In this document: positions 10,923 to 48,636 of the stretch, one piece after another
Numbering within the stretch: the stretch's first letter is position 1
How the letters are laid out: each line of letters begins with the position of its first letter
Source of the DNA: Acidimicrobiales bacterium
Lineage (GTDB): Bacteria > Actinomycetota > Acidimicrobiia > Acidimicrobiales > GCA-2861595
NCBI GenBank assembly: GCA_035526335.1
Contig: DATLCN010000046.1
Span: 45,251-109,250, forward strand
Length of the DNA: 64,000 nucleotides
Reading direction: 5' to 3'
The notes under the pieces: model-generated
The model's input: the letters and a program-made list of their open reading frames with translations, nothing else
Told to the model about the DNA's origin: nothing
Databases searched by the model: none
Translations under genes and position numbers: made by a program

Positions 10923-11011
10923 GCGTCCAGACAAGGCCAACGAAAGCGACGAAAAGACACGCTGTGGTCGCCCCGACGCCGGTGCAGGGTTTCGGGACGT
11001 ACCCTTGCGGA

Positions 11012-29956: not shown

Positions 29957-30004
29957 CGGGTCGATCAGGACTCCGGGAGGGCGGCTCGGCTAGCCTCCGG
30001 GCTC

Positions 30005-30610: not shown

Positions 30611-30623
30611 GCAGCCCCGCTTC

Positions 30624-30929: not shown

Positions 30930-30940
30930 CCCGGCCCAGC

Positions 30941-32890: not shown

Positions 32891-32892
32891 CG

Positions 32893-34533
32893 ATGGGGTC
32901 CGACTTCCCGATCCTGAGCGTGATCGTCACGCTCCCGGCGCTCGGCGCCGTGCTCGTTGCCCTGCTCCCCCGGTCGCGGGAGGACCTCATCCGCAATGTC
33001 GGCCTGGTGGCCAGCCTGGGGGTGGCCGTTCTCACGATCATCCTTGCGGTCGACTTCGAGGCCGGCGTCGCCGGCTACCAGTTCCTGAGCGAGCACAGCT
33101 GGATCGAGGACTTCGGGATCTCCTGGATTCTCGGCGTCGACGGCATCTCGCTCTTCCTCGTGGTGCTCTCGGGCGTGCTGTTCCCCATAGCCCTGTACGG
33201 CCCCAAGGTCCACAAGGACCTGAAGTCGTACGTGGCGTGGATGCTCGTTCTCGAAGCCGGCTGCCTCGGTTCGTTCCTGTCCCTCGACCTCTTCCTGTTC
33301 TTCCTGTTCTTCGAGATCACCCTCGTTCCCATGTACTTCATCATCGGAGGTTGGGGCTACGACAACCGGGTCTACGCCTCGGTCAAGTTCTTTCTCTACA
33401 CGCTGTTCGGCTCGGCCTTCATGCTCGTCGGGATGCTGGCGCTGGTGTACCTCTCGGCCAAGGGGCGGGCGCCGGTGACCTTCGACATCCGGGAGCTGGC
33501 CGAGCGTGGCTCCGTCACCGGCGACACCGCCCGCTGGATCTTCCTCGCCTTCATGGCTGCCTTCGCGGTGAAGGTCCCGTTGTTCCCGGTCCACACCTGG
33601 CTGCCCGACGCCCACACCGAGGCGCCCACTGCGGGCTCGGTGATCCTGGCCGGTGTGCTCCTGAAACTCGGGACCTACGGCATCGTCCGCTTCGGGCTCA
33701 CCCTCTTCCCGCAGGCGGCGGTGGACCTGGCCCCGCTCCTGCTCACTCTCGCCGTCATCGGGATCATCTACGGGGCACTGGTGGCCACCGTGCAGAAGGA
33801 CCTCAAACGGCTGGTGGCCTATTCGTCGGTGGCCCACCTCGGGTTCATCGTGCTCGGCACCTTTGCGTTCACGAACCAGGGACTGTCCGGCGGGGTGCTC
33901 CAGATGGTCAACCACGGCCTGTCGACCGGAGCCCTCTTCCTTCTCGTCGGCATGATCTACGAGCGTCGCCACACCCGCCAGATCGCCGAGCTCAATGGTC
34001 TGCAGAAGTCGATGCCCCTGCTCGCCGCCGTCTTCACCGTGGTGATGATGTCGTCGATCGGACTGCCGGGCCTCAACGGCTTCGTCGGCGAGTTCCTCAT
34101 CCTCATCGGCACCTTCGTCGCCCACCGCTGGTGGGCCGTGGTGGCCACCGGCGGGGTCGTCCTCGCCGCCCTCTACCTGTTGTGGGCCTACCAGAGGGTG
34201 TTCCACGGCACGCCCACGGGCGACAACGTCGGCCTCGCCGACATGACCCGCAGGGAGAAGACGGTGATGGCGCCCCTGGTGGTGCTGATCGTGTTCCTCG
34301 GCATCTACCCCAAGCCGGTGCTCGATCGCATCGACCCGTCCGTGGACCGTCTCATCGACCATGTCGAGTCCCGCACCGACTACCGCCAACCTGCGGTGGC
34401 CGCCGACCTGGCGGGCAACACCAGGGCCGCCGAACGCGGAATCGCGCGGCAGCAGGCCGGGGTCGAGGCGGAGGAGCGGGCCGCGACGGAGCACGAGGGC
34501 GCCGGCCACATCCACCCGGGGGCTCACCGATGA
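32893..34533 (+). CDS. nuoM: NADH-quinone oxidoreductase subunit M
   Basis: FFEITLVPMYFIIGGWG and KVPLFPVHTWLPDAHTEAPTAGSVILAGVLLKLG. Has a hydrophilic C-terminal tail. Confidence 0.92.
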   Translation: MGSDFPILSVIVTLPALGAVLVALLPRSREDLIRNVGLVASLGVAVLTIILAVDFEAGVAGYQFLSEHSWIEDFGISWILGVDGISLFLVVLSGVLFPIALYGPKVHKDLKSYVAWMLVLEAGCLGSFLSLDLFLFFLFFEITLVPMYFIIGGWGYDNRVYASVKFFLYTLFGSAFMLVGMLALVYLSAKGRAPVTFDIRELAERGSVTGDTARWIFLAFMAAFAVKVPLFPVHTWLPDAHTEAPTAGSVILAGVLLKLGTYGIVRFGLTLFPQAAVDLAPLLLTLAVIGIIYGALVATVQKDLKRLVAYSSVAHLGFIVLGTFAFTNQGLSGGVLQMVNHGLSTGALFLLVGMIYERRHTRQIAELNGLQKSMPLLAAVFTVVMMSSIGLPGLNGFVGEFLILIGTFVAHRWWAVVATGGVVLAALYLLWAYQRVFHGTPTGDNVGLADMTRREKTVMAPLVVLIVFLGIYPKPVLDRIDPSVDRLIDHVESRTDYRQPAVAADLAGNTRAAERGIARQQAGVEAEERAATEHEGAGHIHPGAHR

Positions 34534-36071
34534 GCCCGGCGCTGCTCGCCCAGGTGGGTGGCACCACCCGCCCACCCCTCGAGTTGCCGGACGTCGAGTA
34601 CTCGGCGATGGCGCCGGCCCTGATCCTGATCGCCGGCGCACTGATCCTCCTGGTGTGGGTGTCGGTGGTGCGGCGCCGGCCTCCCTGGCTGTGGGCGGTC
34701 TTCACCCTCGCCACCGGCGCCGCCTCGATGGGTGCCTCGTTGTGGCTCTGGTTCGACGTGCGCGACGACGGAGCCCGGCGGGCGGTTTCCGACGCCCTGG
34801 CCATCGACGGGTTCTCGGTGTTCTTCTTCGTCCTGATCGGCGTCGCCGTGATCCTCGGCGCCCTGCTGGGCGAGGGATACCTCCGGCGGGAGGGGTTCGG
34901 TGGTCCCGAGTTCTACGTCCTGATGCTGCTGTCCGCCTCCGGTGCGATGTTCATGGCCGCGGCCAACGACCTCATCGTGGTGTTCCTCGGGCTGGAGATC
35001 CTCTCGATCGCCCTGTACGTGCTCGCCGGATTCCACGGCCGGCGCCTCGAATCGCGCGAGGCGGCGATGAAGTACTTCGTGCTCGGCGCCTTCTCCTCGG
35101 CCCTGTTCCTGTACGGCGTGGCCCTGGTCTACGGGGCCACCGGCTCCACCAACCTCGTCGGCATCGCCCGATACCTGGCTGACAATCTCGCCCTCAACAA
35201 CGGCGTGCTGCTGGCCGGCATGGCCCTGCTCCTGGTCGGCCTGGGGTTCAAGGTGGCGATCGTGCCCTTCCACACCTGGACGCCCGACGTGTACCAGGGG
35301 GCGCCCTCACCGGCCACCGGCTTCATGGCCGCCGCGGCCAAGGCCGCCGGTTTTGCCGCGTTGCTCAGGATCTTCTTCTCCACCTTCTCCACCCTGCGCC
35401 TCGACTGGCAGCCGGTCATCTGGGGCCTGGCCATCGTCACCCTGCTGGTGGGATCGGTGCTGGCCGTGGTGCAGACCGACATCAAACGCATGCTGGCGTA
35501 CTCCTCCATCAGCCACGCCGGATACGTCCTCATCGGCCTCCAGGCCGGCAGCACCAACGGCATCGCCGGGTCGCTGTTCTACCTGCTGGCCTACACGTTC
35601 CTCGTGATCGGCAGCTTCGCCGTGATCACCGCCGTCGGTCGACGGGGCGACTCCCGTCACTCCCTCGGCACCTACCAGGGCCTGGCGGCCAGCCGGCCCG
35701 CTCTGGCGATGGCTTTCGCCGTCCTGCTGCTGGCTCAGGCCGGCGTGCCGTTCACCACCGGGTTCCTGGCCAAGTTCTACGTGATCTCCGCGGCCGTCGA
35801 GTCGAAGTCGTACGCCCTGGCATTGATCGGCATGTTGTCCGCTGTGGTGGCCGCCTTCTTCTACCTGAGGGTGACGGTGCTGATGTACATGACGCCGGCA
35901 CCGGCCGACGAGGGCGCGGGCCTGAGCGGAGGCGTGGTGCAGGTGCCGCCGCGCCTCCCCCTGCCCCTCACGACGTGCATCGCGGTGGCCGTGGCCGTTG
36001 CTTTCACCATCGGCTTCGGCCTGCTCCCCTCGCCCATGGTCCATTTCGCCCGCCAGGCCACGTTGCTTTGA
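34530..36071 (+). CDS. nuoN: NADH-quinone oxidoreductase subunit N
   Basis: FLGLEILSIALYVLAG and KVAIVPFHTWTPDVYQGAPSPATGFM. ATG 34530 overlaps the nuoM stop (ATGA). Confidence 0.92.
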   Translation: MSPALLAQVGGTTRPPLELPDVEYSAMAPALILIAGALILLVWVSVVRRRPPWLWAVFTLATGAASMGASLWLWFDVRDDGARRAVSDALAIDGFSVFFFVLIGVAVILGALLGEGYLRREGFGGPEFYVLMLLSASGAMFMAAANDLIVVFLGLEILSIALYVLAGFHGRRLESREAAMKYFVLGAFSSALFLYGVALVYGATGSTNLVGIARYLADNLALNNGVLLAGMALLLVGLGFKVAIVPFHTWTPDVYQGAPSPATGFMAAAAKAAGFAALLRIFFSTFSTLRLDWQPVIWGLAIVTLLVGSVLAVVQTDIKRMLAYSSISHAGYVLIGLQAGSTNGIAGSLFYLLAYTFLVIGSFAVITAVGRRGDSRHSLGTYQGLAASRPALAMAFAVLLLAQAGVPFTTGFLAKFYVISAAVESKSYALALIGMLSAVVAAFFYLRVTVLMYMTPAPADEGAGLSGGVVQVPPRLPLPLTTCIAVAVAVAFTIGFGLLPSPMVHFARQATLL

Positions 36072-36169
36072 CAGGCGGGCGGGCCTGGGTGCGCCCGAAC
36101 GGCACCGGCTCCGCCCCCTCTGCGCCGGCCTCATTGCGGATGCCACCAAATTACGCCAAGGTTGTATCC

Positions 36170-36880
36170 GTGAAAACGAGGGTCCTGCTGGTCGACGATC
36201 ATCGTGCTTTCGCGGAGGCGGTCGCGTTCCGGCTGGAATACGAACCGGAGCTGGAAGTAGTCGGGGTGGCTGCTTCCCGGGCGGATGCCGAGTCGTACCT
36301 CCGCACCACTGCCGTCGACGTGCTGGTGGTGGACCTTCGGCTCGGCGCCGAAGACGGCCTCGAGCTTGCCTCCGCTGCCCGCCAGGCCGTCCCCGGGCTC
36401 CAGGTGGTGGTACTGAGCCATGTCGACGACGTCGCTTTGGCGACGGCTGCTCTCCGGGCCGGGGCCCTGTCGTTCCTGAGCACGGAGACGACCAGCCATG
36501 ATCTGGTAGCCGCTCTCAAGAGCGCCGGACGGGGCGAGATGTGGCTGGCGCCGGCGATGCTGGAGGCGGTGATCCGCCACCTCCTGGAGGCGGCACAGGG
36601 GGCTGCTTCCTGGCGGCCCCCGTTCTCCCTCCTCACGCCTCGCGAGATCGAGGTGCTCAACTGCATGGCAAGAGGCATGAGTTGCGCGGCCATCGCCGAG
36701 CAGCTGTCGCTGTCCACCCACACCGTGCGCAGTCACGTGCAGAACATGCTGAACAAGCTCAACGTCCATTCGGGGCTGGAGGCCGTGGCGCTGGCGCGGA
36801 GAGCGGGCGTGGTTGACGCACCAGAGCCCGGATCGGCTCCGATGACGCTCGACATCGGAAGCATCCGCCAGGCCAGGTAG
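36170..36880 (+). CDS. NarL/FixJ (LuxR-type HTH) response regulator, orphan, atypical receiver
   Basis: Receiver domain: VLLVDDH and DVLVVDLRLG. C-terminal LTPREIEVLNCMARGMSCAAIAEQLSLSTHTVRSHVQNMLNKL. No histidine kinase gene is adjacent. Confidence 0.85.
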   Translation: MKTRVLLVDDHRAFAEAVAFRLEYEPELEVVGVAASRADAESYLRTTAVDVLVVDLRLGAEDGLELASAARQAVPGLQVVVLSHVDDVALATAALRAGALSFLSTETTSHDLVAALKSAGRGEMWLAPAMLEAVIRHLLEAAQGAASWRPPFSLLTPREIEVLNCMARGMSCAAIAEQLSLSTHTVRSHVQNMLNKLNVHSGLEAVALARRAGVVDAPEPGSAPMTLDIGSIRQAR

Positions 36881-36887: not shown

Positions 36888-37865
36888 TCAGGCCGAAGAT
36901 GCACCCGGCACCGACGCCGGGCAGCACGTGGCCACGATCTGCTCCACGAGCAGGGGGAGGGTTTCGTAGCTCCGCCGCCTCTCGAGCTGCCAGCCCGGGA
37001 CAGCACCGACGAGACCGACCACCTCGGAGAAGCACCAGGCCTGATCCTCCTTGAGGGGAAGCTTGAAGCTCATGGCGTAGAGGTTGCGGATGGCGACTGA
37101 TGCCTCCAGCGGGGTCAGGCGATCGCGCTTCTCGCTGTTCTTCAGCAGGATCACGCCGCCGATGGGCACCGGGTCACCGGTACCCCGCCGGTGACCGTCG
37201 ATCGACAGGTGGGACCGCCACTGGTCTCTGGCCACCACCGTCGTGCCGGTGAGGTCCATCCGTTCCGCACTGTCCGGCCTCATGCGGAGGAGGGCCGGGC
37301 CAGGGAAGAGGACAGGTGTGGACGTGACGCGGCAGCAGCTGATGTCCTCCGCCAGCACCCGGTAGCCCGCCTGGTGGAAGGCGGCGGCAAGTGTGGTCTT
37401 GCCCGTTCCGCCCGGAGCGACGAACACCAGCGCCTGTCCCGCCACCTCCACGGCGGCGGCGTGCACAGCCAGGTCGCGGCGGGCGCGGAGGCACAAGCTG
37501 GCCGGATAGCTCCACAGCCGCTCCTCCCGATGGACCTCGTCCGGATCGGGCGGCATGGTGACCACCCCCGACCCGGTGTCGATTCCGAACCAACCCTCCT
37601 CGTTCACCTGCAGCCGGAGCTCACCTCCGACCTGGCGCAGCTCGGCTCGAAAAGGGCGTTCGGGGTGCCCTGTGAACAACGCCACGCGGGTGGAGCCAGG
37701 AGGGTCGTCCAACCTCTCCTCGGCGATCTGAAGGGGCACCCCGGATCCCGACCGGACGAACTGCAGCGGCACTGAAGAGGTGACGCCGAACCCGTAACAG
37801 CTGCCCACCGTGGCCTGCCCCGCCGCACCGGTGGTCGTGCCCGAACCCTCGAGCCTTCCCGCCAC
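36888..37865 (-). CDS. HPr-kinase-related (HprK-like) kinase, putative lasso-peptide tailoring kinase
   Basis: P-loop VFVAPGGTGKTTLAAAF in an approximately 300-aa protein, immediately downstream of the PqqD and cyclase genes. Architecture matches the kinases of phosphorylated lasso-peptide clusters. Confidence 0.7.
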   Translation of the reverse strand: MAGRLEGSGTTTGAAGQATVGSCYGFGVTSSVPLQFVRSGSGVPLQIAEERLDDPPGSTRVALFTGHPERPFRAELRQVGGELRLQVNEEGWFGIDTGSGVVTMPPDPDEVHREERLWSYPASLCLRARRDLAVHAAAVEVAGQALVFVAPGGTGKTTLAAAFHQAGYRVLAEDISCCRVTSTPVLFPGPALLRMRPDSAERMDLTGTTVVARDQWRSHLSIDGHRRGTGDPVPIGGVILLKNSEKRDRLTPLEASVAIRNLYAMSFKLPLKEDQAWCFSEVVGLVGAVPGWQLERRRSYETLPLLVEQIVATCCPASVPGASSA

Positions 37866-37873: not shown

Positions 37874-38170
37874 TTACTCGTCGAGGCCGGCGTCGAACTG
37901 CGCCAGGTCACGCTCGCGCAGTGCTTCGAGGAACTCCGCCGCCTCCTCGTCCAGCCCAGCCGGCGGGTCGTCGATCCTGGTGCGCAGAGAGGTGAGCAAC
38001 TGGGCGAAGGTGACCTCTTCCTCGAGAAGGCTCCAGATCAGGCCGCCGACCTCATTGACCCCGTGGTACTGCGCGGAACCCACGTGGAGCACCACGCCGC
38101 CACTGCCTTCGGCCAGTTGCCGGTAGACCGCCTCGCTGTTCCGCCGCAGCCGCGTGTCGGGCTCGATCAT
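37874..38170 (-). CDS. PqqD-family RiPP recognition element (lasso B1 candidate)
   Basis: 98 aa. AVYRQLAEGSGGVVLHVGSAQYHGVNEVGGLIWSLLEE...FAQLLTSL...AAEFLEALRERDL matches the PqqD/RRE pattern. Start at ATG 38170. Confidence 0.8.
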   Translation of the reverse strand: MIEPDTRLRRNSEAVYRQLAEGSGGVVLHVGSAQYHGVNEVGGLIWSLLEEEVTFAQLLTSLRTRIDDPPAGLDEEAAEFLEALRERDLAQFDAGLDE

Positions 38171-38195: not shown

Positions 38196-39977
38196 TCATC
38201 CGAGTGACAGGAAGGCATGCGCGACAGCGAGATCCCGGGCCCAGATGTACTCCCACAGGGTGAGATCCTCTCGCTCGAGGTGACCGGCCAAGGCACCATA
38301 GTCGACACCGTCTACGTTGCGATCATGGCCCAGGATCCAATGACGGAGAGCGGGATAGTCGACGCCGGCCATGATCGCCTCGTTGAAGACGGTGGGCTTC
38401 TCCCGATCGAGAATGGCATCGGGGACCCGCCCCCGCAGCAGGTGACGCACGAGGTCCTTGCTCCGCCGGCCCGGGAACTTCTGCTCCGCTCGGAGGCTGA
38501 TGAAGAACTCCCAGAGGTCCACGTCGGTCCAGGGCATCCGGACCATGATGTTCCGCAGCTCCTGCCGGACCTCGTCCGCTTCGACTCCGATCCCAGGTCC
38601 GCCGAAGGCGACGAGCTGACGGTCGTGCCACCTGGTCCGGGCGCCGACGAGCAGGTCCGAGTCGCCGCCTTCCAGCCGCTCGGCATCCAGGAAGTCGGGT
38701 CGGGGAGCGCCTCGGTACCGGTCCTGGCGGCGGCTCCGCATGTAGCGCAACCTTCCGGGGGCAGCCCATCGGATCAGGTTCCGGGCCGTGCGGGCCGGGC
38801 CGGCGCCGGCGCCCTGCTGGAGTCGCAGTTGGGCCTGAAGCGCCCTGAAGCGGCCGTGGTAGATCAAATGGGTCTCGAGGTGGGAGCGCATCGCCATCAC
38901 GTGCTCGGCCACCTCACCGGTGAGCAGTGTGCGGAAGCCGAGGGCCTCAGCCCGCCGGTAGCTCTCGTCCACCTCGTTCACCGCCCACACGGGGGTCGGT
39001 CCGTCGAGGACCTCCACCCATTCTGTGAGCCTGTCGAGCTGGCCGGCCTGGTGCTCGAAGGTGTGGAGGGGAATGTCGAGGTCGGCGGCCACGATCTCGA
39101 TGTACTCCCGTTCGTCGACGCTCGGCTGGTCGGGGTAGACCGCCGACAAAGCGGAGAGCGGCCGGCCGCCGAGCTCCAGGTGACGGGGCGCGGCGTAGGC
39201 GGCGATGGCGGGTGAATCGATCCCACCGCTGAGCGACACGGCGTCGTGCCCTGTGAGCATGCGGGCGTTGGCCTGGTCCATCAGCTCGTCGAAGCGCTCC
39301 TGGAGCTCCTCCTCGCTGAAGGTGGCCGTTTCGATCAACGACTCGGGATCCCAGTAGCGGCGGAACTCGGACCTGCCGGCGCCGGCCATCATGACCGTCG
39401 ACTTGGCCAGACGCCTCACCCCGCTGACGGCACACGGCGTGTCGTCGTCGTAGTCGCTGAACACGATGGCTGCGACGACATCGGGGTCGGGTCGACGGGC
39501 GATGCCGGCTCCGGCCACGACCTGTTTCGCCTCCGAAGCGAAGAAGACCCTGTCGGGCTCGTTGCGGTAGAAGAGCGACCGGAAGCCCAGCTGATCCCGA
39601 AACGCCCATGCCCGCTGCCCGTCGGTCACGACTGCGGCGAAAACGCCCCGCAGATCCCGCGGTGCCCGCCAGCCCAGGCGCCGGAAGGCGGCCAGGAGCA
39701 GAGCGGCGTGGCTGAACTCCGGCCCGTTCCTCAGGCCCAGCGCCCGGGCCAGGTCTGCAGCGTTGTCGATGACGCCGTTGACGGCAACCCCGAGATCCCC
39801 GTCCACGGCGATGCTGGCCTCGTGGCGGGATGAGCGGTTGCTGACTCCGAGGAGGCAGTGTCCGTGGCGGACCACCTGTCGCTCGTCACCCCTGTGGGGA
39901 GCCGCGGCCAACATCCGCTCGACAGAGGCGGTACCCGAGTCCCCCCGGCGATCCAGAACCGCTACGACGCTGGGCAC
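38196..39977 (-). CDS. Asparagine-synthetase-like lasso peptide cyclase (C protein)
   Basis: PP-loop SLSGGIDSPAIAAYAA. AsnB-like N-domain without the N-terminal catalytic Cys (starts (M/V)PSVVAV rather than MCG). GTG start. Confidence 0.85.
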   Translation of the reverse strand: MPSVVAVLDRRGDSGTASVERMLAAAPHRGDERQVVRHGHCLLGVSNRSSRHEASIAVDGDLGVAVNGVIDNAADLARALGLRNGPEFSHAALLLAAFRRLGWRAPRDLRGVFAAVVTDGQRAWAFRDQLGFRSLFYRNEPDRVFFASEAKQVVAGAGIARRPDPDVVAAIVFSDYDDDTPCAVSGVRRLAKSTVMMAGAGRSEFRRYWDPESLIETATFSEEELQERFDELMDQANARMLTGHDAVSLSGGIDSPAIAAYAAPRHLELGGRPLSALSAVYPDQPSVDEREYIEIVAADLDIPLHTFEHQAGQLDRLTEWVEVLDGPTPVWAVNEVDESYRRAEALGFRTLLTGEVAEHVMAMRSHLETHLIYHGRFRALQAQLRLQQGAGAGPARTARNLIRWAAPGRLRYMRSRRQDRYRGAPRPDFLDAERLEGGDSDLLVGARTRWHDRQLVAFGGPGIGVEADEVRQELRNIMVRMPWTDVDLWEFFISLRAEQKFPGRRSKDLVRHLLRGRVPDAILDREKPTVFNEAIMAGVDYPALRHWILGHDRNVDGVDYGALAGHLEREDLTLWEYIWARDLAVAHAFLSLG

Positions 39978-39988: not shown

Positions 39989-40024
39989 ATCATCGCCGAG
40001 GCGACTGTGCACCTCGGCGATGAT
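39989..40024 (-). terminator. Perfect 13-bp stem / 10-nt loop hairpin between the lasso precursor gene and the cyclase gene (attenuator-type)
   Basis: ATCATCGCCGAGG-cgactgtgca-CCTCGGCGATGAT. It lies 46 nt after the A stop and 11 nt before the C GTG start. On the minus strand it is followed by TCGCGTTTGATG. Confidence 0.5.
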
Positions 40025-40070: not shown

Positions 40071-40214
40071 TCAGGGAGAAGCGAACGGGTGCGAAAACTC
40101 GCCGTACTTGTCGGTTTCCATGACCGTCGAACTCTTGTCACCTTTTCCGGGATTGTCGAACGTGTGCTCGGCTACTGAGCCGAAATCCACGATCGTGGGC
40201 TTCTCGTATCGCAT
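40071..40214 (-). CDS. Lasso peptide precursor (A peptide), 47 aa: MRYEKPTIVDFGSVAEHTFDNPGKGDKSSTVMETDKYGEFSHPFASP
   Basis: Strong SD (GGAGGGAGG) 6 nt upstream of the ATG. The leader matches YxxPxLx3Gx5Tx (Y3, P6, I8, G12, T18). It lies directly upstream of the cyclase in a locally lower-GC stretch. Confidence 0.8.
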   Translation of the reverse strand: MRYEKPTIVDFGSVAEHTFDNPGKGDKSSTVMETDKYGEFSHPFASP

Positions 40215-40309
40215 CTGCACCTCCCTCCGTCGTGATCTCGATGATTCTAACCGAGAGTGACCATGGCGGGGAACCCTCAGAAGCACTAGTTACTGTGCTG
40301 TAGCCCCGC

Positions 40310-41143
40310 TCAATAGAGCCCCAGTGTACCAAGACGGCGTTCCCGTCGAAGCGCCAGCCGGAAGGCCAAGCCACCGGCGAGCAGCGAGATGGCCGCCATC
40401 GGCGCCAGCTTGAGCAGGGTGGGGACGATCCCTGACCACCCCGCATGCCCGAGCAGTGCATTGCGGGCCGCGCCCAGGGCGATGGCCACCGGATTGAGAC
40501 GGGCTACGGCCTCCAGCCAGTTCGGTAGCACGTCGAGGGGGAAGTAGGCCCCCGAGGTCATGGTCAAGGCGGCGCCGGCGAAGCCGGTGACGGCGCCGCC
40601 ACGCCTGAAGGTGAGCACGCCGGCCGCGCTCACCACGCCCAGTCCCCAGACGACGGGGATCAGGGCCAGCATCACAGCTGCCGCTGGGCCGAACCCGCTG
40701 AGGTCGAACCCGAGGTGGAAGAGAAAGTGCGCCATTACGAGGAACAAACTGGTGCGAAACGGGACATACACCATGTCGAAGGTCACGAACCCGAGTTGCA
40801 GTGTGGCCGGCGCGCTGGGTGTCATCATCAGGGCCTCGAGGGTTCCCATCAGCTGCTCGTTACGGACGGCCGCCATCACCTGCCCCAGCGCCACCTGCAC
40901 GAAGCCGCTCGTGGCTATACCCACCGCCACGAACTGGAGATACGTCGCACGGCTCCCGCCGAACTGCGGCAACCGGGAGGGGTCCACCAGCCGGCCGACG
41001 AAGGAGAAGGTGACGAGGTTGATCAGCAGCCCGATCCAGTCGGTCCACACTGCGGTCTTGTAGCTGAGCAGCACGAGAAGATCCCGCCGGAAGAAGGCGG
41101 GCAGCTTCCGTAGCTCCTCCACCAGCGCACGACGTCTTGTCAA
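40310..41143 (-). CDS. ABC-2 type transporter permease
   Basis: 277 aa with about 6 TM segments. N-terminal FFRRDLLVLLSYKTAVW is typical of ABC-2 permeases. TTGA overlap with the upstream ATPase gene. Confidence 0.8.
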   Translation of the reverse strand: MTRRRALVEELRKLPAFFRRDLLVLLSYKTAVWTDWIGLLINLVTFSFVGRLVDPSRLPQFGGSRATYLQFVAVGIATSGFVQVALGQVMAAVRNEQLMGTLEALMMTPSAPATLQLGFVTFDMVYVPFRTSLFLVMAHFLFHLGFDLSGFGPAAAVMLALIPVVWGLGVVSAAGVLTFRRGGAVTGFAGAALTMTSGAYFPLDVLPNWLEAVARLNPVAIALGAARNALLGHAGWSGIVPTLLKLAPMAAISLLAGGLAFRLALRRERRLGTLGLY

Positions 41144-42153
41144 GCCTGCTCGCCGTCACCGGTCAGACGGAGGAAGGCCTCCTCCAGCTGGGATCTCTCC
41201 TCCTGGCATGCCACCACCTGGATGCCGTGCGCTCCCAGGTCGTTCATCACGTCTCCGAGGAGCACTTCGTCTTCCAGGGTGACGATGAAGTGCTCGACGT
41301 CAGGCGTGGCCTGGACCGATCCCCTCTGGGCCAGCGCGGCGGCCAGCTGGTCCGCGGTCGGCGGAACGTTGCTTCCGGTTCGTACCCGGAGCAGGAAACG
41401 GCGCAGCTCGACGGTGGCGAGAAGTTCCGGCACGCTCCCGGAGAACCGCACGCGACCCGAGCGGAGAACCGTTACCACCTGGGCGAACCCCTTCACCTCC
41501 TCGAGACGCTGCGTCGCCCATAGAACGGCAGCACCGCGCTCGGCCGCCTGTACCACCAGTGCCCGGATGCGACGAGCTCCTTCCGGATCGAGGTCGTGGG
41601 TGGCTTCGTCCACGACCAGCACACTGGGACTTCCGAGAAGGGCGCGGGCCATCGCCAGTCGCTTTTGCATCCCGTGCGAGTAGACCCCGACGCGGCGGTC
41701 GGCCGCTTCGGTGAGGCCTACCGCCTCCAGGCACTTCCGCGCCCGCTGCAGGGAGTCGCGGCGGTTGCGCCCGTCCAGTCTGGCGAAGAAAGCCAGGTTC
41801 TCCAGGCCCGATATCCGAAGGTAGAAGGTGCGGTCGCCGGAGGGCACCATGGCGATGGCCTTCCGGTATTCCCGGCTGTCGGGGCCGGCGGCCACCCCGG
41901 CCGCCGTCACCTCCCCACTGTCAGGCTGGAGCAGGCCGGTGACGATACGGAGAAGGGTGGTCTTTCCGGCACCGTTGGGGCCCAGCAGCGCATGGATCTG
42001 CTGGCGGGCCACCTTGATCGTGACCTGGTCCAGCGCCTGGAGGGCTCCGAACCGCCGCGACACCTGCGACACCTCCAGGGCGAGGCTGCCATCGGGGGGC
42101 ACCGGAGGCTCAGAGGGGTTCAAACCAGCACACGGCTTCCGATGCGCGAGCAT
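41140..42153 (-). CDS. ABC transporter ATP-binding protein
   Basis: Walker A GPNGAGKTT, signature-like YSHGMQKRL and Walker B VLVVDEATHDLD. Start set at ATG 42153, so it does not overlap the divergent B2 gene. Confidence 0.85.
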   Translation of the reverse strand: MLAHRKPCAGLNPSEPPVPPDGSLALEVSQVSRRFGALQALDQVTIKVARQQIHALLGPNGAGKTTLLRIVTGLLQPDSGEVTAAGVAAGPDSREYRKAIAMVPSGDRTFYLRISGLENLAFFARLDGRNRRDSLQRARKCLEAVGLTEAADRRVGVYSHGMQKRLAMARALLGSPSVLVVDEATHDLDPEGARRIRALVVQAAERGAAVLWATQRLEEVKGFAQVVTVLRSGRVRFSGSVPELLATVELRRFLLRVRTGSNVPPTADQLAAALAQRGSVQATPDVEHFIVTLEDEVLLGDVMNDLGAHGIQVVACQEERSQLEEAFLRLTGDGEQA

Positions 42154-42199
42154 AAGCGACCCGTCGCAGGCCTGGGATCGCTCCGCGTTACCATCTCGG

Positions 42200-42655
42200 A
42201 TGATCGAACCGGGTGACGCGGCACCGGACGTTCCCGGCGCGAAGGCCGTGTACAAGGGACCGCTCAGGCCGGTCGAAAAGCTGCTGCTCTTCGGCCGGAT
42301 CTGGTTCTGGGGAGCATGGGTACGGGTTCAGCTGCGCCGCTGCGAGCTGCCTGACGTCGTAGGGCGGCTCGGGGAGGTCCCGCCACGGGCAGCCTCCCGG
42401 CCGGTGAACCCGCTCAGGCTCGGCAAGATCGTGCACCGAGCGTCGTGGATAGGCCCGTTCAAACCCCGATGCCTGGTGATCGCGCTGGTGCATTTCCGGC
42501 TGTTGAGGGAACAGGGTGAAGCGGCGCAGCTCGTGATCGGACTGCCCGCCGGACCCCAGGACATCGCCGCCCACGCGTGGGTGGAGATGGGCGGCGTGGA
42601 CGTTGGCCCGCCGCCGGGGCGGGGACGCCACGAAGAGCTCGTCCGTTACGCCTGA
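42200..42655 (+). CDS. Lasso peptide leader peptidase B2 (transglutaminase-like Cys protease)
   Basis: 151 aa. Catalytic-type Cys in KPRCLVIALV and His in AAHAWVEMGGVDV. N-terminal hydrophobic LLLFGRIWFWGAWV is typical of McjB C-terminal-domain homologs. Confidence 0.8.
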   Translation: MIEPGDAAPDVPGAKAVYKGPLRPVEKLLLFGRIWFWGAWVRVQLRRCELPDVVGRLGEVPPRAASRPVNPLRLGKIVHRASWIGPFKPRCLVIALVHFRLLREQGEAAQLVIGLPAGPQDIAAHAWVEMGGVDVGPPPGRGRHEELVRYA

Positions 42656-42674: not shown

Positions 42675-43037
42675 TCAGACGGAGATGTCCGGGTTGCTGA
42701 GGCCGACCTCGGTGTCCTGAGGGCTGTTTATCTCGACGAAGCCGTTGCACGCCAAGGCCAGGATGAAGGCTGCGATCTCTTCGCGAAACGAGTTCGGAAT
42801 ATCCTCGAACCGGACCTCGAGCCCGGCCAGCAGGCTGAGGAAGGTCGGGCCTCCTTCCAGGAGGGCCCAGACCACCGCGCCCACATGGTTCACGCGGTAG
42901 CAGTTCTCTGCATCCCGCAGGTAGAGGGCGCCGCCACTCAGGTCCGAGAGCTCGTGGTACACCGCCTGCGGGCTGCGGCGTATCTCAGCATGGTCAGCGA
43001 CTCCCCCCATGGTTCGGGAAGTGTAGCGGGACGCCAA
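42675..43037 (-). CDS. Second PqqD-family peptide-binding protein (RRE / peptide chaperone)
   Basis: AVYHELSDLSGGALYLRDAENCYRVNHVGAVVWALLEGGPTFLSLLAGL...EIAAFILALACNGFVE parallels the first PqqD protein. The start may be at M10 (43010). Confidence 0.75.
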   Translation of the reverse strand: MASRYTSRTMGGVADHAEIRRSPQAVYHELSDLSGGALYLRDAENCYRVNHVGAVVWALLEGGPTFLSLLAGLEVRFEDIPNSFREEIAAFILALACNGFVEINSPQDTEVGLSNPDISV

Positions 43038-43252: not shown

Positions 43253-44740
43253 ATGCGTTCGCTTACGAATGGATCAGGCTTGAAGGGAGCAGGTGTATCC
43301 GCCGATCCGGCACGGCGGGGCCAATCGGACGGTGTCAAGCGCGAGCAGGCCCGATCCGCAGTCTCGGCCCGGTCCCGGTCCAGGTCCGTGACGATTCTCA
43401 CCGTCCTCTCCGCTGTGCTCGACGGGCTCGCCGTCGCCGGCGCCTTCACGTTGAACGCCGAGGCGGCTCCGGGTGAGCGCAGCACGATCGTGGCCATGGT
43501 GGCCGTCGTCTTCGCGGCTGTGCTCGTGGGGCTCAAGGACCGCCGCCGGCTCCTGGCGCCTGTGGAGGAACTTCGGAGACTCGTGAAGGGCGTTTCCGCC
43601 GGTGCGGTCGGCATCGTGCTCGTGTCCTTCGCCCTCCATGTCGAGGTGTCCCGGGGTTGGGTCGTGGCCCTCTGGGCGACCAGCACGGCTACGGTCGGCC
43701 TGTCGCGCCTGATAGCTCGCGCCACGATCAAATCGCTCAATAGCCGTCGTGTACTCGGTCGGGCGACGCTGGTCGTGGGAACCAACGACGAGGCCAGGAT
43801 CATCGCCCGCATCCTGGAGCGTCAGCCTTGGCGGGGATATCACGTGGCCGGCTTCGTCTCCGTGGGACCTCTGGCGACGGCTCGGCTGGATGGCCATGCC
43901 GTCGTCGGAACCACCGCTCAGGTGGCTGACGCAGTGGCGCGCCACGAGGCCGGCGTGGTGATCATCGCCGGTACGGCCACGCCGCCGGCAGAGCTCCTCG
44001 AACTGACCCGCGTCCTGGAGCTCCTCGACGTCGAGGTACGCATCTCGCCAGGGCTTCCCCATGTCGCAGCTTCCAGGATGACGGTCGCCGCGATGGACGG
44101 GCTGGCCATGCTCTGTCTCCGGAAGCCGCAGTTCACCAGGTTCCAGTCCCGGGTGAAGCGCTCCTTCGACCTGGTCGTGGCGTCGATTCTCGCTGTCATC
44201 CTGGCGCCGGTGGCATTGGTCATCGCCATGGCCGTGTGGTTCAGCAGCGGCCGGCCGGTTATCTTCCGCCAGCTGCGCGTGGGTGCCGGCGGAAAGTTGT
44301 TCACGATCTACAAGTTCCGCACCATGGTGCCAGATGCCGAATTACGGCTCGACGAGGTGCTCGGGCAGAACCAGGCCGACGGGTTGCTGTTCAAGCTCCA
44401 CGACGACCCCCGCGTCACACGGCTGGGACGGGTGCTGAGGCGTTGGGGTCTCGACGAGCTCCCCCAGCTCGTCAACGTGTTGAAGGGAAACATGAGCATG
44501 GTGGGGCCCCGGCCGGCCCTGCTGACGGAGACCACGAGCTACGACGAGAGAATGAGGAGCCGCCTGAGGGTGCTTCCCGGCCTCACCGGCCTCTGGCAGG
44601 TCAACGGCCGCCACGAGCTCCTCTTCGACGACTACATCCGTTACGACCTCTACTACGTGGACAACTGGTCGTTGGGTCTCGACCTGTGGGTCATCGCCAA
44701 GACGATTCCCGCTCTGCTGACCCGCCGAGGATCCCATTGA
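43253..44740 (+). CDS. Polyprenyl-phosphate glycosyl-1-phosphate transferase (WbaP/CpsE-type priming sugar transferase)
   Basis: C-terminal bacterial sugar transferase domain: KRSFDLVVA, IFRQLRVG..GKLFTIYKFRTM, DELPQLVNVLKGNMSMVGPRP and PGLTGLWQV. TM segments lie N-terminal to it. Confidence 0.88.
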   Translation: MRSLTNGSGLKGAGVSADPARRGQSDGVKREQARSAVSARSRSRSVTILTVLSAVLDGLAVAGAFTLNAEAAPGERSTIVAMVAVVFAAVLVGLKDRRRLLAPVEELRRLVKGVSAGAVGIVLVSFALHVEVSRGWVVALWATSTATVGLSRLIARATIKSLNSRRVLGRATLVVGTNDEARIIARILERQPWRGYHVAGFVSVGPLATARLDGHAVVGTTAQVADAVARHEAGVVIIAGTATPPAELLELTRVLELLDVEVRISPGLPHVAASRMTVAAMDGLAMLCLRKPQFTRFQSRVKRSFDLVVASILAVILAPVALVIAMAVWFSSGRPVIFRQLRVGAGGKLFTIYKFRTMVPDAELRLDEVLGQNQADGLLFKLHDDPRVTRLGRVLRRWGLDELPQLVNVLKGNMSMVGPRPALLTETTSYDERMRSRLRVLPGLTGLWQVNGRHELLFDDYIRYDLYYVDNWSLGLDLWVIAKTIPALLTRRGSH

Positions 44741-44749
44741 GGATCGGGG

Positions 44750-45955
44750 TCAGCCGGCTGGTTCCGCCCGGGGATCGCCGCTGACCGCTGAAAGGTATTC
44801 GCACAGGTGGGCGGGATCGCCGGTGGGACGGAGCCACTCCAGCGAGACGTCCGGGCCCCGCTCCTCTCGATCGGACCTGGCCGTCAATCGCCGCGAGGCG
44901 CTGACGGCCAGCGCCCCCAGGCTCGATCGCAGGTCGGCGCGGGTGGCCCGGGCCACCATGGTTGCCGGCGACGCTGGTTGTGAGGTCCGCTCGACCGGCC
45001 AGAGAGTGTCGGCCGCGGACACGACCGACCGCCACGCCCACCCCGACAGAGACCGCATCACCTCCGGGGGCACCGCGAAGCCGAGGGTGTCGCGGGCCCG
45101 AAGGAGCATGGTCGCCACTACCAGGTCGACCCGCCACGTCCTCGCCCGCCGGATCACCTCGTCCCAGTCGGGCGTGTCGTAGAGAACCGCCTGCTCGATG
45201 TCCTTCAGCCACCTGAGCTTGCCACCCCCTTCGCGGAACGAATGCACGGCGAGGTGGATGAGCAGGTCGCTCGGGTCGAGTGACCGGACCTGGTGATCGC
45301 CCACCCGGACAGGCCGGCACCGCTCCAGCATCGCCTCGGTCGGGATGGAGAAGCTTCCTCGTAGATCACCGTCGTAGAGCAGCTCCCAATGCAGGTCGAG
45401 GAGCGTCCCGTGTGGGAGCACGATGTTCACCTCTCCGGCCATCTGCTCCTTGGCGATCATCCAGTTACGGTCCACGAGCGGGCACCCGCTCGCCTCGAAG
45501 GCCCGGACCACGGTGGCGAAGTCGGCACGCGGGACGAGCAGGTCGAGGTCGCTGTAGCTCCGCAGGTCGTGGTGGCGGTAGACCGCCTCGGCCAGCACCG
45601 GGCCCTTGAGTACCGCCCAACTCACCCCGGTGCCGGCGAGGAGGCGGGCAACAGTCCGCAGATCGGCGAGTACCCGCAGGTGCGCTTCGAGCGACCGCCG
45701 GCGGGCCAGGTCGAGCCTTTCCAGCACCTGCTCCTCTACGCCGTCGAGGGACTTCAGGCTGTAATAGGCGCAGGCGGCGACTCCGTGGGTGATGGCTGCA
45801 TCAGGCAATGAGCTCAGGTCGGCACCGGCGACGAGGCGCCCCAGACCCGGTGGTGGGATCCCCCAGTCGTGCTCCGACGTGCACAGCGCCAGCACCCGGC
45901 CGCGGAGACGTGCCTGACGGGCGCCGGCGATGAGCCGACCAGCTTCAGCGAACAC
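44750..45955 (-). CDS. Uncharacterised nucleotidyltransferase family (NTP_transf_5-like) protein
   Basis: VLKGPVLAEAVYRHHDLRSYSDLDLLVPRADF...LDLHWEL is the pattern I associate with PF14907-type nucleotidyltransferases. Confidence 0.65.
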   Translation of the reverse strand: MFAEAGRLIAGARQARLRGRVLALCTSEHDWGIPPPGLGRLVAGADLSSLPDAAITHGVAACAYYSLKSLDGVEEQVLERLDLARRRSLEAHLRVLADLRTVARLLAGTGVSWAVLKGPVLAEAVYRHHDLRSYSDLDLLVPRADFATVVRAFEASGCPLVDRNWMIAKEQMAGEVNIVLPHGTLLDLHWELLYDGDLRGSFSIPTEAMLERCRPVRVGDHQVRSLDPSDLLIHLAVHSFREGGGKLRWLKDIEQAVLYDTPDWDEVIRRARTWRVDLVVATMLLRARDTLGFAVPPEVMRSLSGWAWRSVVSAADTLWPVERTSQPASPATMVARATRADLRSSLGALAVSASRRLTARSDREERGPDVSLEWLRPTGDPAHLCEYLSAVSGDPRAEPAG

Positions 45956-47468
45956 GGTTGAGGAGGTCGTCCCGGGCGTCGGTGAGCAGGTGCGGTGCGA
46001 ACATCAAAAGGTATGCGGAGTAGGCCGTGCCCCCGCCGGCGACGGAGGCGGCGAAGCGCAACCCGAAGCCCGTCGATTCGGGAACCATAACCAGTGCCAG
46101 CCACGCGCACAGGGCCATCGCGGCCGACGCCGCCGCCACCGGCACGACGGTCATCAGAAGTATGTGGACCCGGGTCTGGAGTGTCCTCGCCACCAGCCCG
46201 AGAGATACGGGCAACAGCAGGTAGCCGGCCACCGTGAACCCGGTGGCCACCCCGGCTATGCCATGGCCCACCCCAACGGCGAAGCCGATGACGTAGAAGA
46301 AGAATCCCGTGGCGGCCATCCAGAAGTCCAGGGACGGTTTGCCGATGGCCGAGTAGACGGCACCGTTGAGGCGGTTCATGGCGATGCGGGGGCCGTTGAG
46401 GGCGAGGATCTGCACGGTGGCCACCGCCGGCAACCAACGTGATCCGAACACGAGCGGTATCAACACCGGCGCCGTCACCGCGATCCCCAGTGAGGCCGGG
46501 AAGCAGAGGAGAGCGATGCTTCTGATAGCCCTGCAGAAGGCCGTCCGGATCCGCGCGATGTCGTGCTGGATCGAGGAGAACGCCGGGAACACGACGCTCC
46601 ACACGACGTCGGCCACCTTCTGGATGGGAAAGAGCATGAGCCGGTAGGCGAGGCCGTAGAAACCGAGCGCGGTCGCTCCCAGGACCTTCCCGACGATCAG
46701 ATTGTCGATGTTCGTCTGGCCGTAATAGATCAGCCTGAATCCCGAGGAATAGGCGCCGAAGCCGGCGAGGTCGGCCGCAGCGGCACGATTGATGCCGATT
46801 CGTGGGTGCCAGACACCTGCCCGCAGGGCGGCCAGGGCGACGGCGACGAACGCGACGAAGGTCTCGCCGAGCGAGTAGGCCACCAGAGCCCAGACACCGG
46901 CACCGAGGAAGGCCAGCACCACGCCGGCGACGCCTCCCACGCTCACGGCTATCACCGTCGACACCACGATGGGCCTGAACCGCAGCTCCCGTTGGAGGAG
47001 CTGCCTGGGCGCACCCTGGAGTGCCCGGAAGATAAAGGTGAGACTCATGACCAGGAGAACGGGATGGAGGTCCGGCTCCTCGAAGAAGCTGGCCAGGTGG
47101 GGCGATGACCAGGCGACCACGGCTGCCATCAGGAGTCCGGCCAGGCCGCTCAGGGTCGTGGCCGTGGTGACGTGTTCGGGCGACAACTCCCGCCGGTGGA
47201 CGAGGGCGGAACCGAAGCCGAGGTCCCCGAGCAGATCCGCCAGTTGCGTGACTATGAAGGCCATGGCGATGATGCCGAAATCGGCAGGAGCCACGAGCTT
47301 GGTCAGCACGGCCAGGATGGCGAGGCGGGCGAACTGCTGGAAGCCCTGGTCCACCATGCCCCATCGGAGGCCTGAGGTCACCTGGGCGCGGAGACCCGGT
47401 ACCTCCTCGGTCAACTGCACCGGCAGGTGGTCCTGGGTGGTGTCGCCGGCGTCAGGGCCTGTCAGCAC
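45945..47468 (-). CDS. Polysaccharide flippase (Wzx / MOP superfamily)
   Basis: About 12-14 TM segments. N-terminal GLRWGMVDQGFQQFARLAILAVLTKLVAPADFGIIAMAF is typical of Wzx-type polysaccharide biosynthesis proteins. Confidence 0.8.
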   Translation of the reverse strand: MLTGPDAGDTTQDHLPVQLTEEVPGLRAQVTSGLRWGMVDQGFQQFARLAILAVLTKLVAPADFGIIAMAFIVTQLADLLGDLGFGSALVHRRELSPEHVTTATTLSGLAGLLMAAVVAWSSPHLASFFEEPDLHPVLLVMSLTFIFRALQGAPRQLLQRELRFRPIVVSTVIAVSVGGVAGVVLAFLGAGVWALVAYSLGETFVAFVAVALAALRAGVWHPRIGINRAAAADLAGFGAYSSGFRLIYYGQTNIDNLIVGKVLGATALGFYGLAYRLMLFPIQKVADVVWSVVFPAFSSIQHDIARIRTAFCRAIRSIALLCFPASLGIAVTAPVLIPLVFGSRWLPAVATVQILALNGPRIAMNRLNGAVYSAIGKPSLDFWMAATGFFFYVIGFAVGVGHGIAGVATGFTVAGYLLLPVSLGLVARTLQTRVHILLMTVVPVAAASAAMALCAWLALVMVPESTGFGLRFAASVAGGGTAYSAYLLMFAPHLLTDARDDLLNRVR

Positions 47469-48636
47469 GGGCCTGGAACGCGGATTCGTACACCTCGAGC
47501 AGTGCGTCGACGTGCGCGTCCAGCGAGTAGCGCTCTGTCACCCGTTGGCGCCCCGCCCGCCCCAGCCGTTCGCGCTGCCCCGGATCGGACGCCACCTCCA
47601 CCAAGGTGGTCGCGGACGCAGTGGCATCCTCCATGTCGATCAGCCGGCCCGTGACCCCTTCCTCCAAAAGGTCCGTTATGCCGCCGGCGGTCGCGCCCAC
47701 CACGGCCCGTCCGGTGGCCCAGGCTTCGAGTACCACCCGCGCCGTACCCTCGCCTCGCGACGGCACGATGGTGAAATCGGCGGCCGACATCAGGGCGGGC
47801 ACGTCCGGTCGCGAGCCGAGGAAGTGGAGCCGGCTGCCGGCGGGGGATGCCGCCGCCTGCGCGATCAGGGCCCGTCGGATGTTCCGGCCCTCCGTGTACG
47901 TCGCACCGCCGGCATGTGCGACATGCAGCTTCGGGTCCTTCTCGAGGGCATCCAGCACGATCGGCACCAGGAGGTCCAGGCCCTTGAACCAGTGGAAGTT
48001 GGCCACCACCAGGCCGAGAACGGCTGTGTCCGGTATGCCGAGATCGCTCCTGACCTGCGACCGGTCGATCGGTTGAGGAAACCCTCCGCTGTCGATGCCG
48101 TTGGGGATGAAACGCACCGCCATGCCGGGAGCACCGACCTGATCCGCGGTGGCCGTGCTGTTGGTCACGACGAAGGCGCCGGCCTGCCTGAGCGATCGTG
48201 CAACCGGGACATGGCTCGGGACGCGGAGGTGGGCCACCACAGGGAGACCTGCGACGAGGGCCGATCTCGCGATCCTCTCGCACCGCGGCCCCAGATGCGA
48301 GACGTGGACGAGATCGAAGGATCCCGAGGTGGCGGCCCTCGAGATCAGCGGCGCGCGAAGAGGCCCGGGCGTACGCCTCGCCGCTCCAGGCAGCAGCTTC
48401 AGGCCCTTTTCCGTCGCTACCCGCGCCATCGGGCCGCGCCGCCCGGCAAACGCCAGCGTTACGTCGATCCCCCGCCCGGCCATGGTCTCGGCGGCCAGCA
48501 ACGTGCTCGTCTCGGCACCGGCCAGGTAGGCGTTCTCGGAGACGAGAAGGACGTGCCGGGGCCTCAAGGAGTCCGCAGGACGAGGACTCTCGTCGGCCTC
48601 CGCCGGCTCGGCCGCCGAGGCCGCCTCACAACGCAT
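47452..48636 (-). CDS. Glycosyltransferase, GT-B fold (GT4-like)
   Basis: C-terminal PSRGEGTARVVLEAWATGRAVVGATAGGITDLLEEGVTG (E-x7-E region). Start set at ATG 48636. Confidence 0.8.
   Translation of the reverse strand: MRCEAASAAEPAEADESPRPADSLRPRHVLLVSENAYLAGAETSTLLAAETMAGRGIDVTLAFAGRRGPMARVATEKGLKLLPGAARRTPGPLRAPLISRAATSGSFDLVHVSHLGPRCERIARSALVAGLPVVAHLRVPSHVPVARSLRQAGAFVVTNSTATADQVGAPGMAVRFIPNGIDSGGFPQPIDRSQVRSDLGIPDTAVLGLVVANFHWFKGLDLLVPIVLDALEKDPKLHVAHAGGATYTEGRNIRRALIAQAAASPAGSRLHFLGSRPDVPALMSAADFTIVPSRGEGTARVVLEAWATGRAVVGATAGGITDLLEEGVTGRLIDMEDATASATTLVEVASDPGQRERLGRAGRQRVTERYSLDAHVDALLEVYESAFQARADRP

Follow-up and report, generated by a model that had tools for sequence, protein, structure and literature searches.

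The window analysed here is a stretch of 64,000 nucleotides from the Acidimicrobiales contig DATLCN010000046.1, and our subject is the short open reading frame (ORF) on its minus strand at 40071-40214, which the original prediction, made from the letters alone, took for the precursor of a lasso peptide with a seven-residue ring closed by Asp. We find this ORF to be a genuine small gene whose product is the precursor to a modified peptide of the lasso type, and we lean, with modest confidence, towards a reading in which the leader would be cleaved after Phe19 and a ring would be closed onto Asp35 from the region of Lys27 and Ser28. The gene and the parts of its product are located as follows.

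40071-40214, minus strand: precursor gene A (47 aa plus stop), recognised by its translation, its NF033521 match and its homologues
40220-40228, minus strand: Shine-Dalgarno sequence GGAGGGAGG, read from the sequence, 5 nt upstream of the ATG of gene A
40158-40214, minus strand: leader, residues 1-19 (YEKPTIVDFGSVAEHTF), with the probable B1-binding motif and the B2 site after F19
40134-40157, minus strand: residues 20-27, DNPGKGDK (the N-region), the ring of the original prediction, ending in the invariant Lys27 (codon 40134-40136)
40086-40133, minus strand: conserved module, residues 28-43 (SSTVMETD35-KYG-E39-F-S41-HP), recognised by subfamily conservation
40110-40112, minus strand: codon of Asp35, the probable ring acceptor (Asp in 51/51 subfamilies)
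40092-40094, minus strand: codon of Ser41, a candidate phospho-site (Ser two residues past the module Glu in 49/51 subfamilies)

The translation, MRYEKPTIVDFGSVAEHTFDNPGKGDKSSTVMETDKYGEFSHPFASP*, is identical to that given with the original prediction, and the strong Shine-Dalgarno sequence and local drop in G+C content it noted are both present (54.9% in the precursor ORF, 68.6% in the window). A chance ORF is unlikely because neither the leader nor the C-terminal motif occurs in any other ORF of the window, because it lies directly upstream of Asn-synthase-like, PqqD and HprK-like genes, and because its homologues share the leader. These genes, with the others that make up the biosynthetic set, are the following.

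38196-39977, minus strand: C, lasso cyclase homologue (593 aa; Pfam Asn_synthase and GATase_7; N-terminal Cys absent)
37874-38170, minus strand: B1, PqqD-type recognition element for peptides that are ribosomally synthesised and modified after translation (RiPPs) (98 aa; Pfam PqqD, 48.3 bits; PDB matches to TbiB1, 5v1u, and to a lasso PqqD chaperone, 9x90_B)
36888-37865, minus strand: K, HprK-related kinase (325 aa; partial match to TIGR04352; similarity to BsfK)
40310-41143, minus strand: ABC-2 permease (Pfam)
41140-42255, minus strand: ABC ATPase (Pfam ABC_tran), given as the longest ORF, with the likely start estimated at the ATG at 42153
42200-42655, plus strand, transcribed divergently to the ABC genes: B2, leader peptidase (151 aa, ATG at 42200; Transglut_core3; NF033537 lasso_biosyn_B2, 53.7 bits, cut-off 33)
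44750-45955, minus strand: NTP_transf_5 nucleotidyltransferase, PsmN-like (Pfam PF14907, 160.7 bits)

With C, B1, B2, an HprK-like kinase, an ABC exporter and a PsmN-like enzyme, the locus is a cluster of the kinase-associated paeninodin, pseudomycoidin or bsf type (PMC9266682, PMC6993621, PMC10368454). The assignment of C as the cyclase is based on genomic context and co-occurrence and not on model score, which at 133 bits against NCBIfam NF033535 lies far under the cut-off of 525 and on a par with the score of a generic AsnB model. The match of K to TIGR04352 is likewise partial (48.8 bits, cut-off 200), and BLASTP aligns K with the characterised BsfK at 28% identity over 137 aa (E = 8e-7), spanning the Walker A and LAED/LADD motifs; among solved structures neither C nor K has a sequence match. 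The PF14907 gene lies ~4.5 kb from gene A with a sugar transferase gene intervening, and its link to the cluster is one of proximity only.

The leader motif YxxPxLx3Gx5Tx, which the original prediction had read at Y3, P6, I8, G12 and T18, is borne out by NCBIfam NF033521 lasso_leader_L3, which matches residues 3-16 with 19.5 bits (cut-off 19). If the peptide is cut after F19, these five residues occupy positions -17, -14, -12, -8 and -2, the leader positions described for lasso systems of the split-B, or B1/B2, type (PMC10368454). Across 253 relatives from several phyla the leader is near-identical (Y-E-x-P-x-I-x-D-x-G-S-I-A-D-H-T-F), and what follows it is highly diverse across the superfamily, from 10 to ~70 residues. 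The best-supported B2 site is HTF, with cleavage after F19 as originally predicted, because HTF is conserved superfamily-wide, including in clusters that keep B1 and B2 and have no cyclase; it behaves as the B2 site throughout.

The window peptide has 21 close homologues, and a profile search yielded ~600 homologous proteins, the best 120 of which were listed at this level; the close and the profile-level homologues are ~45-60 aa long and share the same leader. A search of 50%-identity representatives added 98 further, more diverse relatives, and 52 loci came from scanning species-representative genomes (51 carry the label of metagenome-assembled genomes), in Gaiellales, Thermoleophilia, Solirubrobacterales, Acidimicrobiia, Chloroflexia, Limnocylindria, Binatia, Gemmatimonadota and other lineages. 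C, B1, B2, the kinase and the ABC pair are present in most of these loci and in nearly all that are of sufficient length, the HprK-related kinase in essentially all of the latter, and the nucleotidyltransferase gene in about half. A full-text literature search with characteristic peptide strings found no paper, and the literature searched gave no characterised member. The family is an uncharacterised and widespread group of kinase-associated lasso-type RiPPs, present in Actinomycetota, Chloroflexota and other lineages of uncultured soil bacteria; an unreported variation on a known theme, it has a fair chance of holding new chemistry.

For residue-level comparison we used a close family of 136 unique sequences, selected by a pattern that fixes Asp35, Ser41 and His42, so that constancy at these three positions is no result; an unfiltered alignment of 22 sequences has Thr34, Asp35, Lys36, Ser41, His42 and Pro43 invariant. 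Residue 27 is Lys in 136/136 and never Arg, residue 39 is Glu in 136/136, residue 28 is Ser in 129 and residue 30 Thr in 104, and between Lys27 and Asp35 there are 7 residues in 72 of the sequences and 8 in the other 64. Residue 20, which the original prediction made the first of the core, is D in 96, N in 26 and Q in 14 (71%, 19% and 10%); Asp as the first residue is plausible, and Asp, Asn or Gln in that place is a conserved feature if B2 cuts after F19. Residue 21 is N in 119, T in 16 and S in 1. Residue 24 varies freely among K, E, A, V, Q and R, and residue 33 is E in just 83, otherwise A (35), V (8) or another residue; with Lys24 and Glu33 both variable, the conventional Gly25-Glu33 (Gly1-Glu9) ring after a cut behind K24, which had been offered as the alternative, is untenable, and we have ruled it out.

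Asp26, or Asp7 counted from the cut, is indeed the sole acidic residue at positions 7-9 after F19 in the window peptide, as originally read. Residue 26 is D in 120, T in 14 and N in 2 of the close family. These 16 peptides without an acidic residue at 7-9 (14 of the form QTPGxGTK, together with NTPGKGNK and DNPGQGNK) are equivalent to the others over the remainder of their length, as in the pair P0104 (QTPGKGTKSSDTTFETDKFGEFSHPFAS) and P0063 (DNPGKGDKSSDTTFETDKFGEFSHPFAASP), and P0091 has no acidic residue at all before its Asp35 equivalent. All seven fetched loci that are without Asp7, six of the QT type and one with Asn7 (L011), keep a full-length cyclase.

At 50% identity the wider superfamily falls into 68 clusters, here called subfamilies, 50 of them with the module plus an upstream Lys. 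The Asp35 position is D in 51/51 subfamilies and never E; four residues past it (five in a few clusters) stands E in 47 and D in 4 of the 51, with Ser two residues further in 49. Lys occupies the positions eight, nine and ten residues upstream of the Asp in 18, 18 and 11 of the 51, against a background frequency of 7.8%, and Arg occupies them in 1, 1 and 0. The spacing from Lys to Asp is 8 or 9 in 36/50 subfamilies, and the residue following the Lys is G in 17, D in 12, S in 9 and N in 6. Residue for residue, the window peptide, K-S-S-T-V-M-E-T-D-K-Y-G-E-F-S-H, can be aligned with a Cys-bearing subfamily, K-D-H-I-V-C-E-T-D-K-F-G-E-Y-S-C. Asp or Glu at positions 7-9 after HTF, on the other hand, is found in 13/50 subfamilies, against 17.5 expected from per-peptide shuffles, and is absent in 37/50, and eight-residue N-regions homologous to DNPGKGDK, such as TTPGGAVK, carry no acidic residue in other subfamilies. 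The lack of acidic enrichment at 7-9 means that the canonical acceptor rule does not describe this superfamily.

The presence of the cyclase follows the module. In 43 of the 47 loci with a match to C the peptide has the module or a close variant, and C is full-length in every locus that bears the module; of the remaining four, one (L031) has a canonical short N-terminal ring and three (L036, L052, L057) have no clean fit. In L036 the cyclase gene at 10252-12016 is split over two frames at about residue 256 and the peptide is without Lys or a clear module, which is probably a sign of a decaying cluster or an assembly error. Four further loci (L045, L048, L050, L054) have no C homologue even at E = 10; they keep B1, B2, the kinase and the ABC pair, with the nucleotidyltransferase in three, and their peptides are without the module. 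In module-bearing peptides, then, C goes with the downstream module and not with an N-terminal acceptor. The products of the four cyclase-less loci are possibly linear, leader-trimmed and phosphorylated peptides.

Whether the segment between HTF and Lys stays in the product is addressed by the cysteines of other subfamilies. In 50 clusters the Cys counts before and after the Lys are odd/odd in 20, even/even in 28, even/odd in 2 and odd/even in 0 (Fisher p = 4.9e-12), and the total after HTF is even in 47 of the 51 Cys-bearing clusters. Certain pairs recur: an x-R-C immediately following HTF goes together with E-C-S of the module, and an upstream Cys goes with one directly before or after the Asp; peptides with such covarying pairs include L053, L055, L056, L049, P0206, P0207, P0157 and P0158. 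This parity may be read as disulfides between N-region and module, with both segments hence in the exported molecule, and it argues against discard of the intervening segment in the cytoplasm. Some leaders have an unpaired Cys of their own, with C-T-F replacing H-T-F, which fits removal of the leader at this site. There are also members very rich in Cys (P0152, P0167, P0173) and motifs rich in His and Cys, such as K-G-C-x3-C-H-x-D; together with the recurrent pairs, they suggest disulfide-stapled or metal-binding products.

From the observed gene, cluster composition and conservation patterns we infer each chemical step of the following scenario. B1 would bind the YxxPxI leader and B2 would cut after H-T-F19, releasing a 28-residue peptide that starts with Asp, a step proposed because of the canonical motif and its universal conservation. 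Cyclase C would then activate Asp35 and form an isopeptide ring from about K27/S28 to D35, with the amine eight residues upstream of the acceptor; K36-Y-G-E39 would make the loop, F40/S41 would lie at the ring, and Asp26 would not be the acceptor. This ring position is suggested by the universal HTF site, the lack of a 7-9 acceptor, the cyclase that tracks the Lys-x7-8-Asp module and an N-region that is apparently kept. Asp35 looks like an acceptor because it is strictly Asp, which fits cyclases in that these as a rule use a single acceptor type (PMC12480086). The amine would be either the Lys27 side chain in a continuous chain, which we favour, or, following a second cleavage at K27|S28, the alpha-amine of Ser28. 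The HprK-like kinase would phosphorylate a Ser, either the invariant Ser41 or the near-terminal Ser46; Ser41, as the sole invariant Ser, is a reasonable guess. Decoration of the phosphate by the NTP_transf_5 enzyme may follow, and the ABC pair would export the product.

In the Lys27 form of this scenario, which we hold only tentatively, the epsilon-amine would be joined to the side chain of Asp35 in a side-chain-to-side-chain macrolactam, a lasso-like ring with DNPGKGD as a free N-terminal extension; in Cys-bearing relatives this extension would be stapled by disulfides to the ring, loop or tail. Such a linkage would explain why Lys and not Arg is conserved, why Cys parity holds and why any residue is tolerated after HTF, even Pro (P0136, P0151). 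A number of points weigh against a ring onto Asp35 in either form. A Lys-side-chain ring is unprecedented for lasso cyclases, and the literature search returned no relevant precedent for a Lys-side-chain lasso or for an N-terminal extension of this kind. The Ser28 option would require a second cleavage without Thr(-2), for which no extra protease gene is conserved. The spacing from Lys to Asp is 10-11 in 11/50 and 6-7 in 3/50 subfamilies; Pro directly after HTF in P0136 and P0151 is awkward for cleavage there; and three peptides without the module, L031 (GQPGHRYD, with C nearby), P0168 (GKPGRHYD) and P0214 (FSGGHSFD), have a canonical ring sequence straight after HTF. Within the close family Asp26 is retained in 88%, and D/N1-N2-D7 covaries with Q1-T2-T7 in both spacer-length classes, as would be expected if pyroglutamate took the place of an Asp1-Asp7 cap in the Gln1 variants. 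The ring of paeninodin starts with x-x-P-G, as does the segment after F19. Moreover, module and anchor-Lys positions were set by regular expressions and the subfamilies are not fully independent, and the Cys-parity argument comes from other subfamilies and would extend to the Cys-free window peptide by homology only.

These points bear on the choice among several alternatives. In the ring of the original prediction, B2 would cut after F19 and the Asp1 alpha-amine would be joined to the Asp7 side chain, giving a seven-residue Asp-closed ring with a 21-residue tail. The canonical leader spacing, the retention of Asp26 in 120/136, the covariation of positions 1, 2 and 7 (DN..D or QT..T, as if Gln1 variants capped as pyroglutamate could dispense with Asp7) and the canonical Gly1-Asp8 or Phe1-Asp8 rings after HTF in the short relatives L031, P0168 and P0214 all speak for it, and D-N-P-G-K-G-D, with Pro3 and Gly6, resembles the xanthomonin ring as its x-x-P-G resembles that of paeninodin. 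We nevertheless consider it distinctly unlikely. It has to accommodate the 16/136 close relatives without an acidic residue at 7-9, seven of them from fetched loci with full-length cyclase, the acid-free N-regions of other subfamilies and the absence of Asp/Glu enrichment at 7-9, and it leaves the invariant Lys27, Asp35 and Glu39 unexplained. Such a ring would also be smaller than that of any threaded lasso we know of, the smallest known to us being the Gly1-Glu7 ring of the xanthomonins. Placing the acceptor at Asp35 and the amine at Ser28, the second form of the scenario above, would give a Ser1-Asp8 lasso of 20 aa with a 12-residue tail, DNPGKGDK being lost as an extended leader after a cut behind Lys27 by B2 or a host protease, alone or following the HTF cut. 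In 44/50 subfamilies the residue after the Lys is G, S, D or N, typical of position 1, the Lys-to-Asp spacing of 8 or 9 in 36/50 corresponds to standard ring sizes, and the QT..T variants read G-T-K|S at the junction, with Thr at -2, as microcin J25 reads T-K|G. The homologues whose alignment on another junction, with a small first residue and an eight- or nine-residue ring, the original prediction had named as evidence against itself are thus found in part, and in silico, at K27|S28...D35. Host proteases can substitute for B1/B2 in pseudomycoidin (PMC6993621). This form is still, in our estimate, unlikely: the -2 residue is mostly Asp in the close family and unconserved in other subfamilies, the leader motif would be 8 to 45 residues too distant from the junction, removal of the segment in the cytoplasm would leave the Cys parity without an explanation, and the ring size would be 6, 10 or 11 in 13/50 subfamilies.

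There are two further arrangements. If the cut fell at V31|M32, with Thr30 as Thr(-2) and everything upstream as a bipartite leader, METDKYGE could close as a Met1-Glu8 ring; Thr30 is T in 104/136, the equivalent residue is T, V, I or L in several subfamilies, as kinase-type clusters allow at -2 (PMC10368454), position 39 is acidic in all subfamilies, and subfamily (c) reads T/V-C|G-N-D-P-M-F-G-E. We give this arrangement hardly any credence, as a quarter of the close family has E, D, I, M, Q, V or P at -2 and the large K-D-x3-C family has R, K, N or Q there, E and D replace each other at position 39 in near relatives, an uncommon pattern for an acceptor, the cut parts conserved Cys pairs (K-G-C-x3-C-H, subfamily (f)) in violation of parity, and Lys27 and Asp35 are left unexplained. 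Alternatively, there might be no small ring at all, with residue 20 linked through its alpha-amine to Asp35 or Glu39 in a macrocycle of 16-20 residues, or with another modification of the carboxylate by C. The apparent retention of the post-HTF segment is in keeping with such a product, and so is the covariation of a Cys at position 3 after HTF with a Cys after the Glu (x-R-C, E-C-S), which would place the N-terminus near the module. Even so, it seems to us very unlikely, for the ring would range from ~14 to >50 residues among subfamilies, Pro comes first in two subfamilies and is not accepted at position 1 (PMC13632552), and the specific conservation of Lys has no explanation.

In gene content, and in its proposed mode of working, the window system is like the phosphorylated lasso peptides. 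Like the window, the clusters of paeninodin (Paenibacillus dendritiformis) and pseudomycoidin (Bacillus pseudomycoides) encode A, C, B1, B2, an HprK-like kinase and an ABC exporter, with a PsmN-type NTP_transf_5 enzyme in the case of pseudomycoidin, and their precursors share with that of the window a Y-x-x-P-x-L/I leader, Thr(-2), x-x-P-G after the cut and a Ser at or near the C-terminus. Those peptides, however, start with Ala1, use a conserved Asp9 as acceptor, end strictly in Ser and come from Firmicutes, whereas in this family of high-GC uncultured lineages the window peptide has Asp first, a 7-9 acceptor that is not conserved among relatives, an extra invariant Lys-x7-Asp-K-Φ-G-E-Φ-Ser module and a Ser-Pro end. 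The C-terminal residue is Ser in 82/136 of the close family and the end is Ser-Pro in 47/136; characterised kinases target a C-terminal Ser (PMC9266682), which the window peptide, ending in Ser-Pro, does not offer, or the internal Ser3 (PMC10368454). The latter case is that of the Bradymonas sediminis bsf cluster (BsfA/B1/B2/K/N), a kinase plus nucleotidyltransferase lasso cluster in which BsfK is homologous to the window kinase and the -2 rule is relaxed to Ile/Val (PMC10368454). Unlike the window peptide, BsfA carries a plain Gly1-Asp8 core whose distance from the leader motif is canonical, and we found no sequence similarity between the two cores. Xanthomonins have a Gly1-Glu7 ring and are made by a proteobacterial fused-B system without a kinase. 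Xanthomonins I-III are the only characterised seven-residue rings we know of, and an Asp-closed ring of seven is not known to us; where xanthomonins have Glu7 as acceptor, position 7 of the close family is D in 120, T in 14 and N in 2.

The view in the original prediction that characterised lasso peptides almost always start with Gly, Ala, Ser or Cys has been overtaken by palassoptides A2 (Glu1-Glu8) and A1 (Phe1), characterised in 2026 as the first with an acidic or aromatic residue 1 (PMC13632552). The two show that almost any residue other than Pro can be taken by a cyclase at position 1, large surveys predict every residue but Pro there, and Asp1 as a natural first residue is not reported as characterised in that paper (PMC13632552). 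The palassoptides come from oral Actinomyces and have a standard eight-residue ring right after the leader and no kinase, unlike the window cluster.

The working rule of the field and of its genome-mining tools, by which the ring closes 7-9 residues past Thr(-2), fails in most subfamilies here despite a perfect leader, and it is the Lys...Asp module, not a 7-9 acceptor, that tracks with the cyclase in a family of hundreds of members from several phyla of uncultured soil bacteria. Any of the ring outcomes would alter the annotation of such clusters and the presumed abilities of lasso cyclases. An Asp1-Asp7 ring, if true, would be smaller than every other lasso ring, and its Asp1 would be the first natural one. 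A ring onto Asp35 would imply two-step or bipartite leader processing, or a cyclase that uses a Lys side chain, and, if the linkage is Lys27-Asp35, these lasso-related peptides would form a structural class not seen before, made by a reaction new to lasso cyclases, which are enzymes of the Asn-synthetase type.

The remaining features of the neighbourhood are listed here.

39989-40024, minus strand: perfect 13-bp inverted repeat between the stop of A and the start of C (15-bp stem when folded; dG -48.2 kcal/mol, z = -4.1)
42675-43037, minus strand: second PqqD-like ORF (120 aa; Pfam PqqD, 25.2 bits), adjoining B2, of uncertain cluster membership
43253-44740, plus strand: Bac_transf sugar transferase, a polysaccharide-type gene beside the NTP_transf_5 gene
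45945-47468, minus strand: Polysacc_synt_3 flippase, of the same type and neighbourhood
47452-48708, minus strand: GT4 glycosyltransferase, likewise

The inverted repeat is likely an attenuator, a processing signal or an mRNA-stabilising hairpin that tunes the ratio of precursor to enzyme. As to the second PqqD-like ORF, loci L001 and L003 have a single called PqqD gene each, and its tblastn matches elsewhere fall on B1. The polysaccharide-type genes at 43253-48708 may be a neighbouring glycan locus or part of a peptide glycosylation function; homologues of the sugar transferase are present also in L018, L031, L043, L046, L049 and L058. Genes for PrmA/PRMT-like methyltransferases lie within related clusters (L001 13181-14212; L003 12330-13658 and 14131-15447), and the window cluster has none; enzymes of the PrmA type methylate Lys and N-terminal amines and might affect whether these amines remain free. 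Immediately downstream of the kinase gene, at 35975-36880 on the plus strand, lies a response regulator whose output domain is of the LuxR/GerE kind and which may regulate the cluster; a GerE-family gene flanks the L003 cluster too. The cluster is preceded, from ~30000 to 36070 on the plus strand, by large membrane proteins that, by their ORF translations only, resemble NADH dehydrogenase subunits L, M and N, and on this side they mark where it is bounded.

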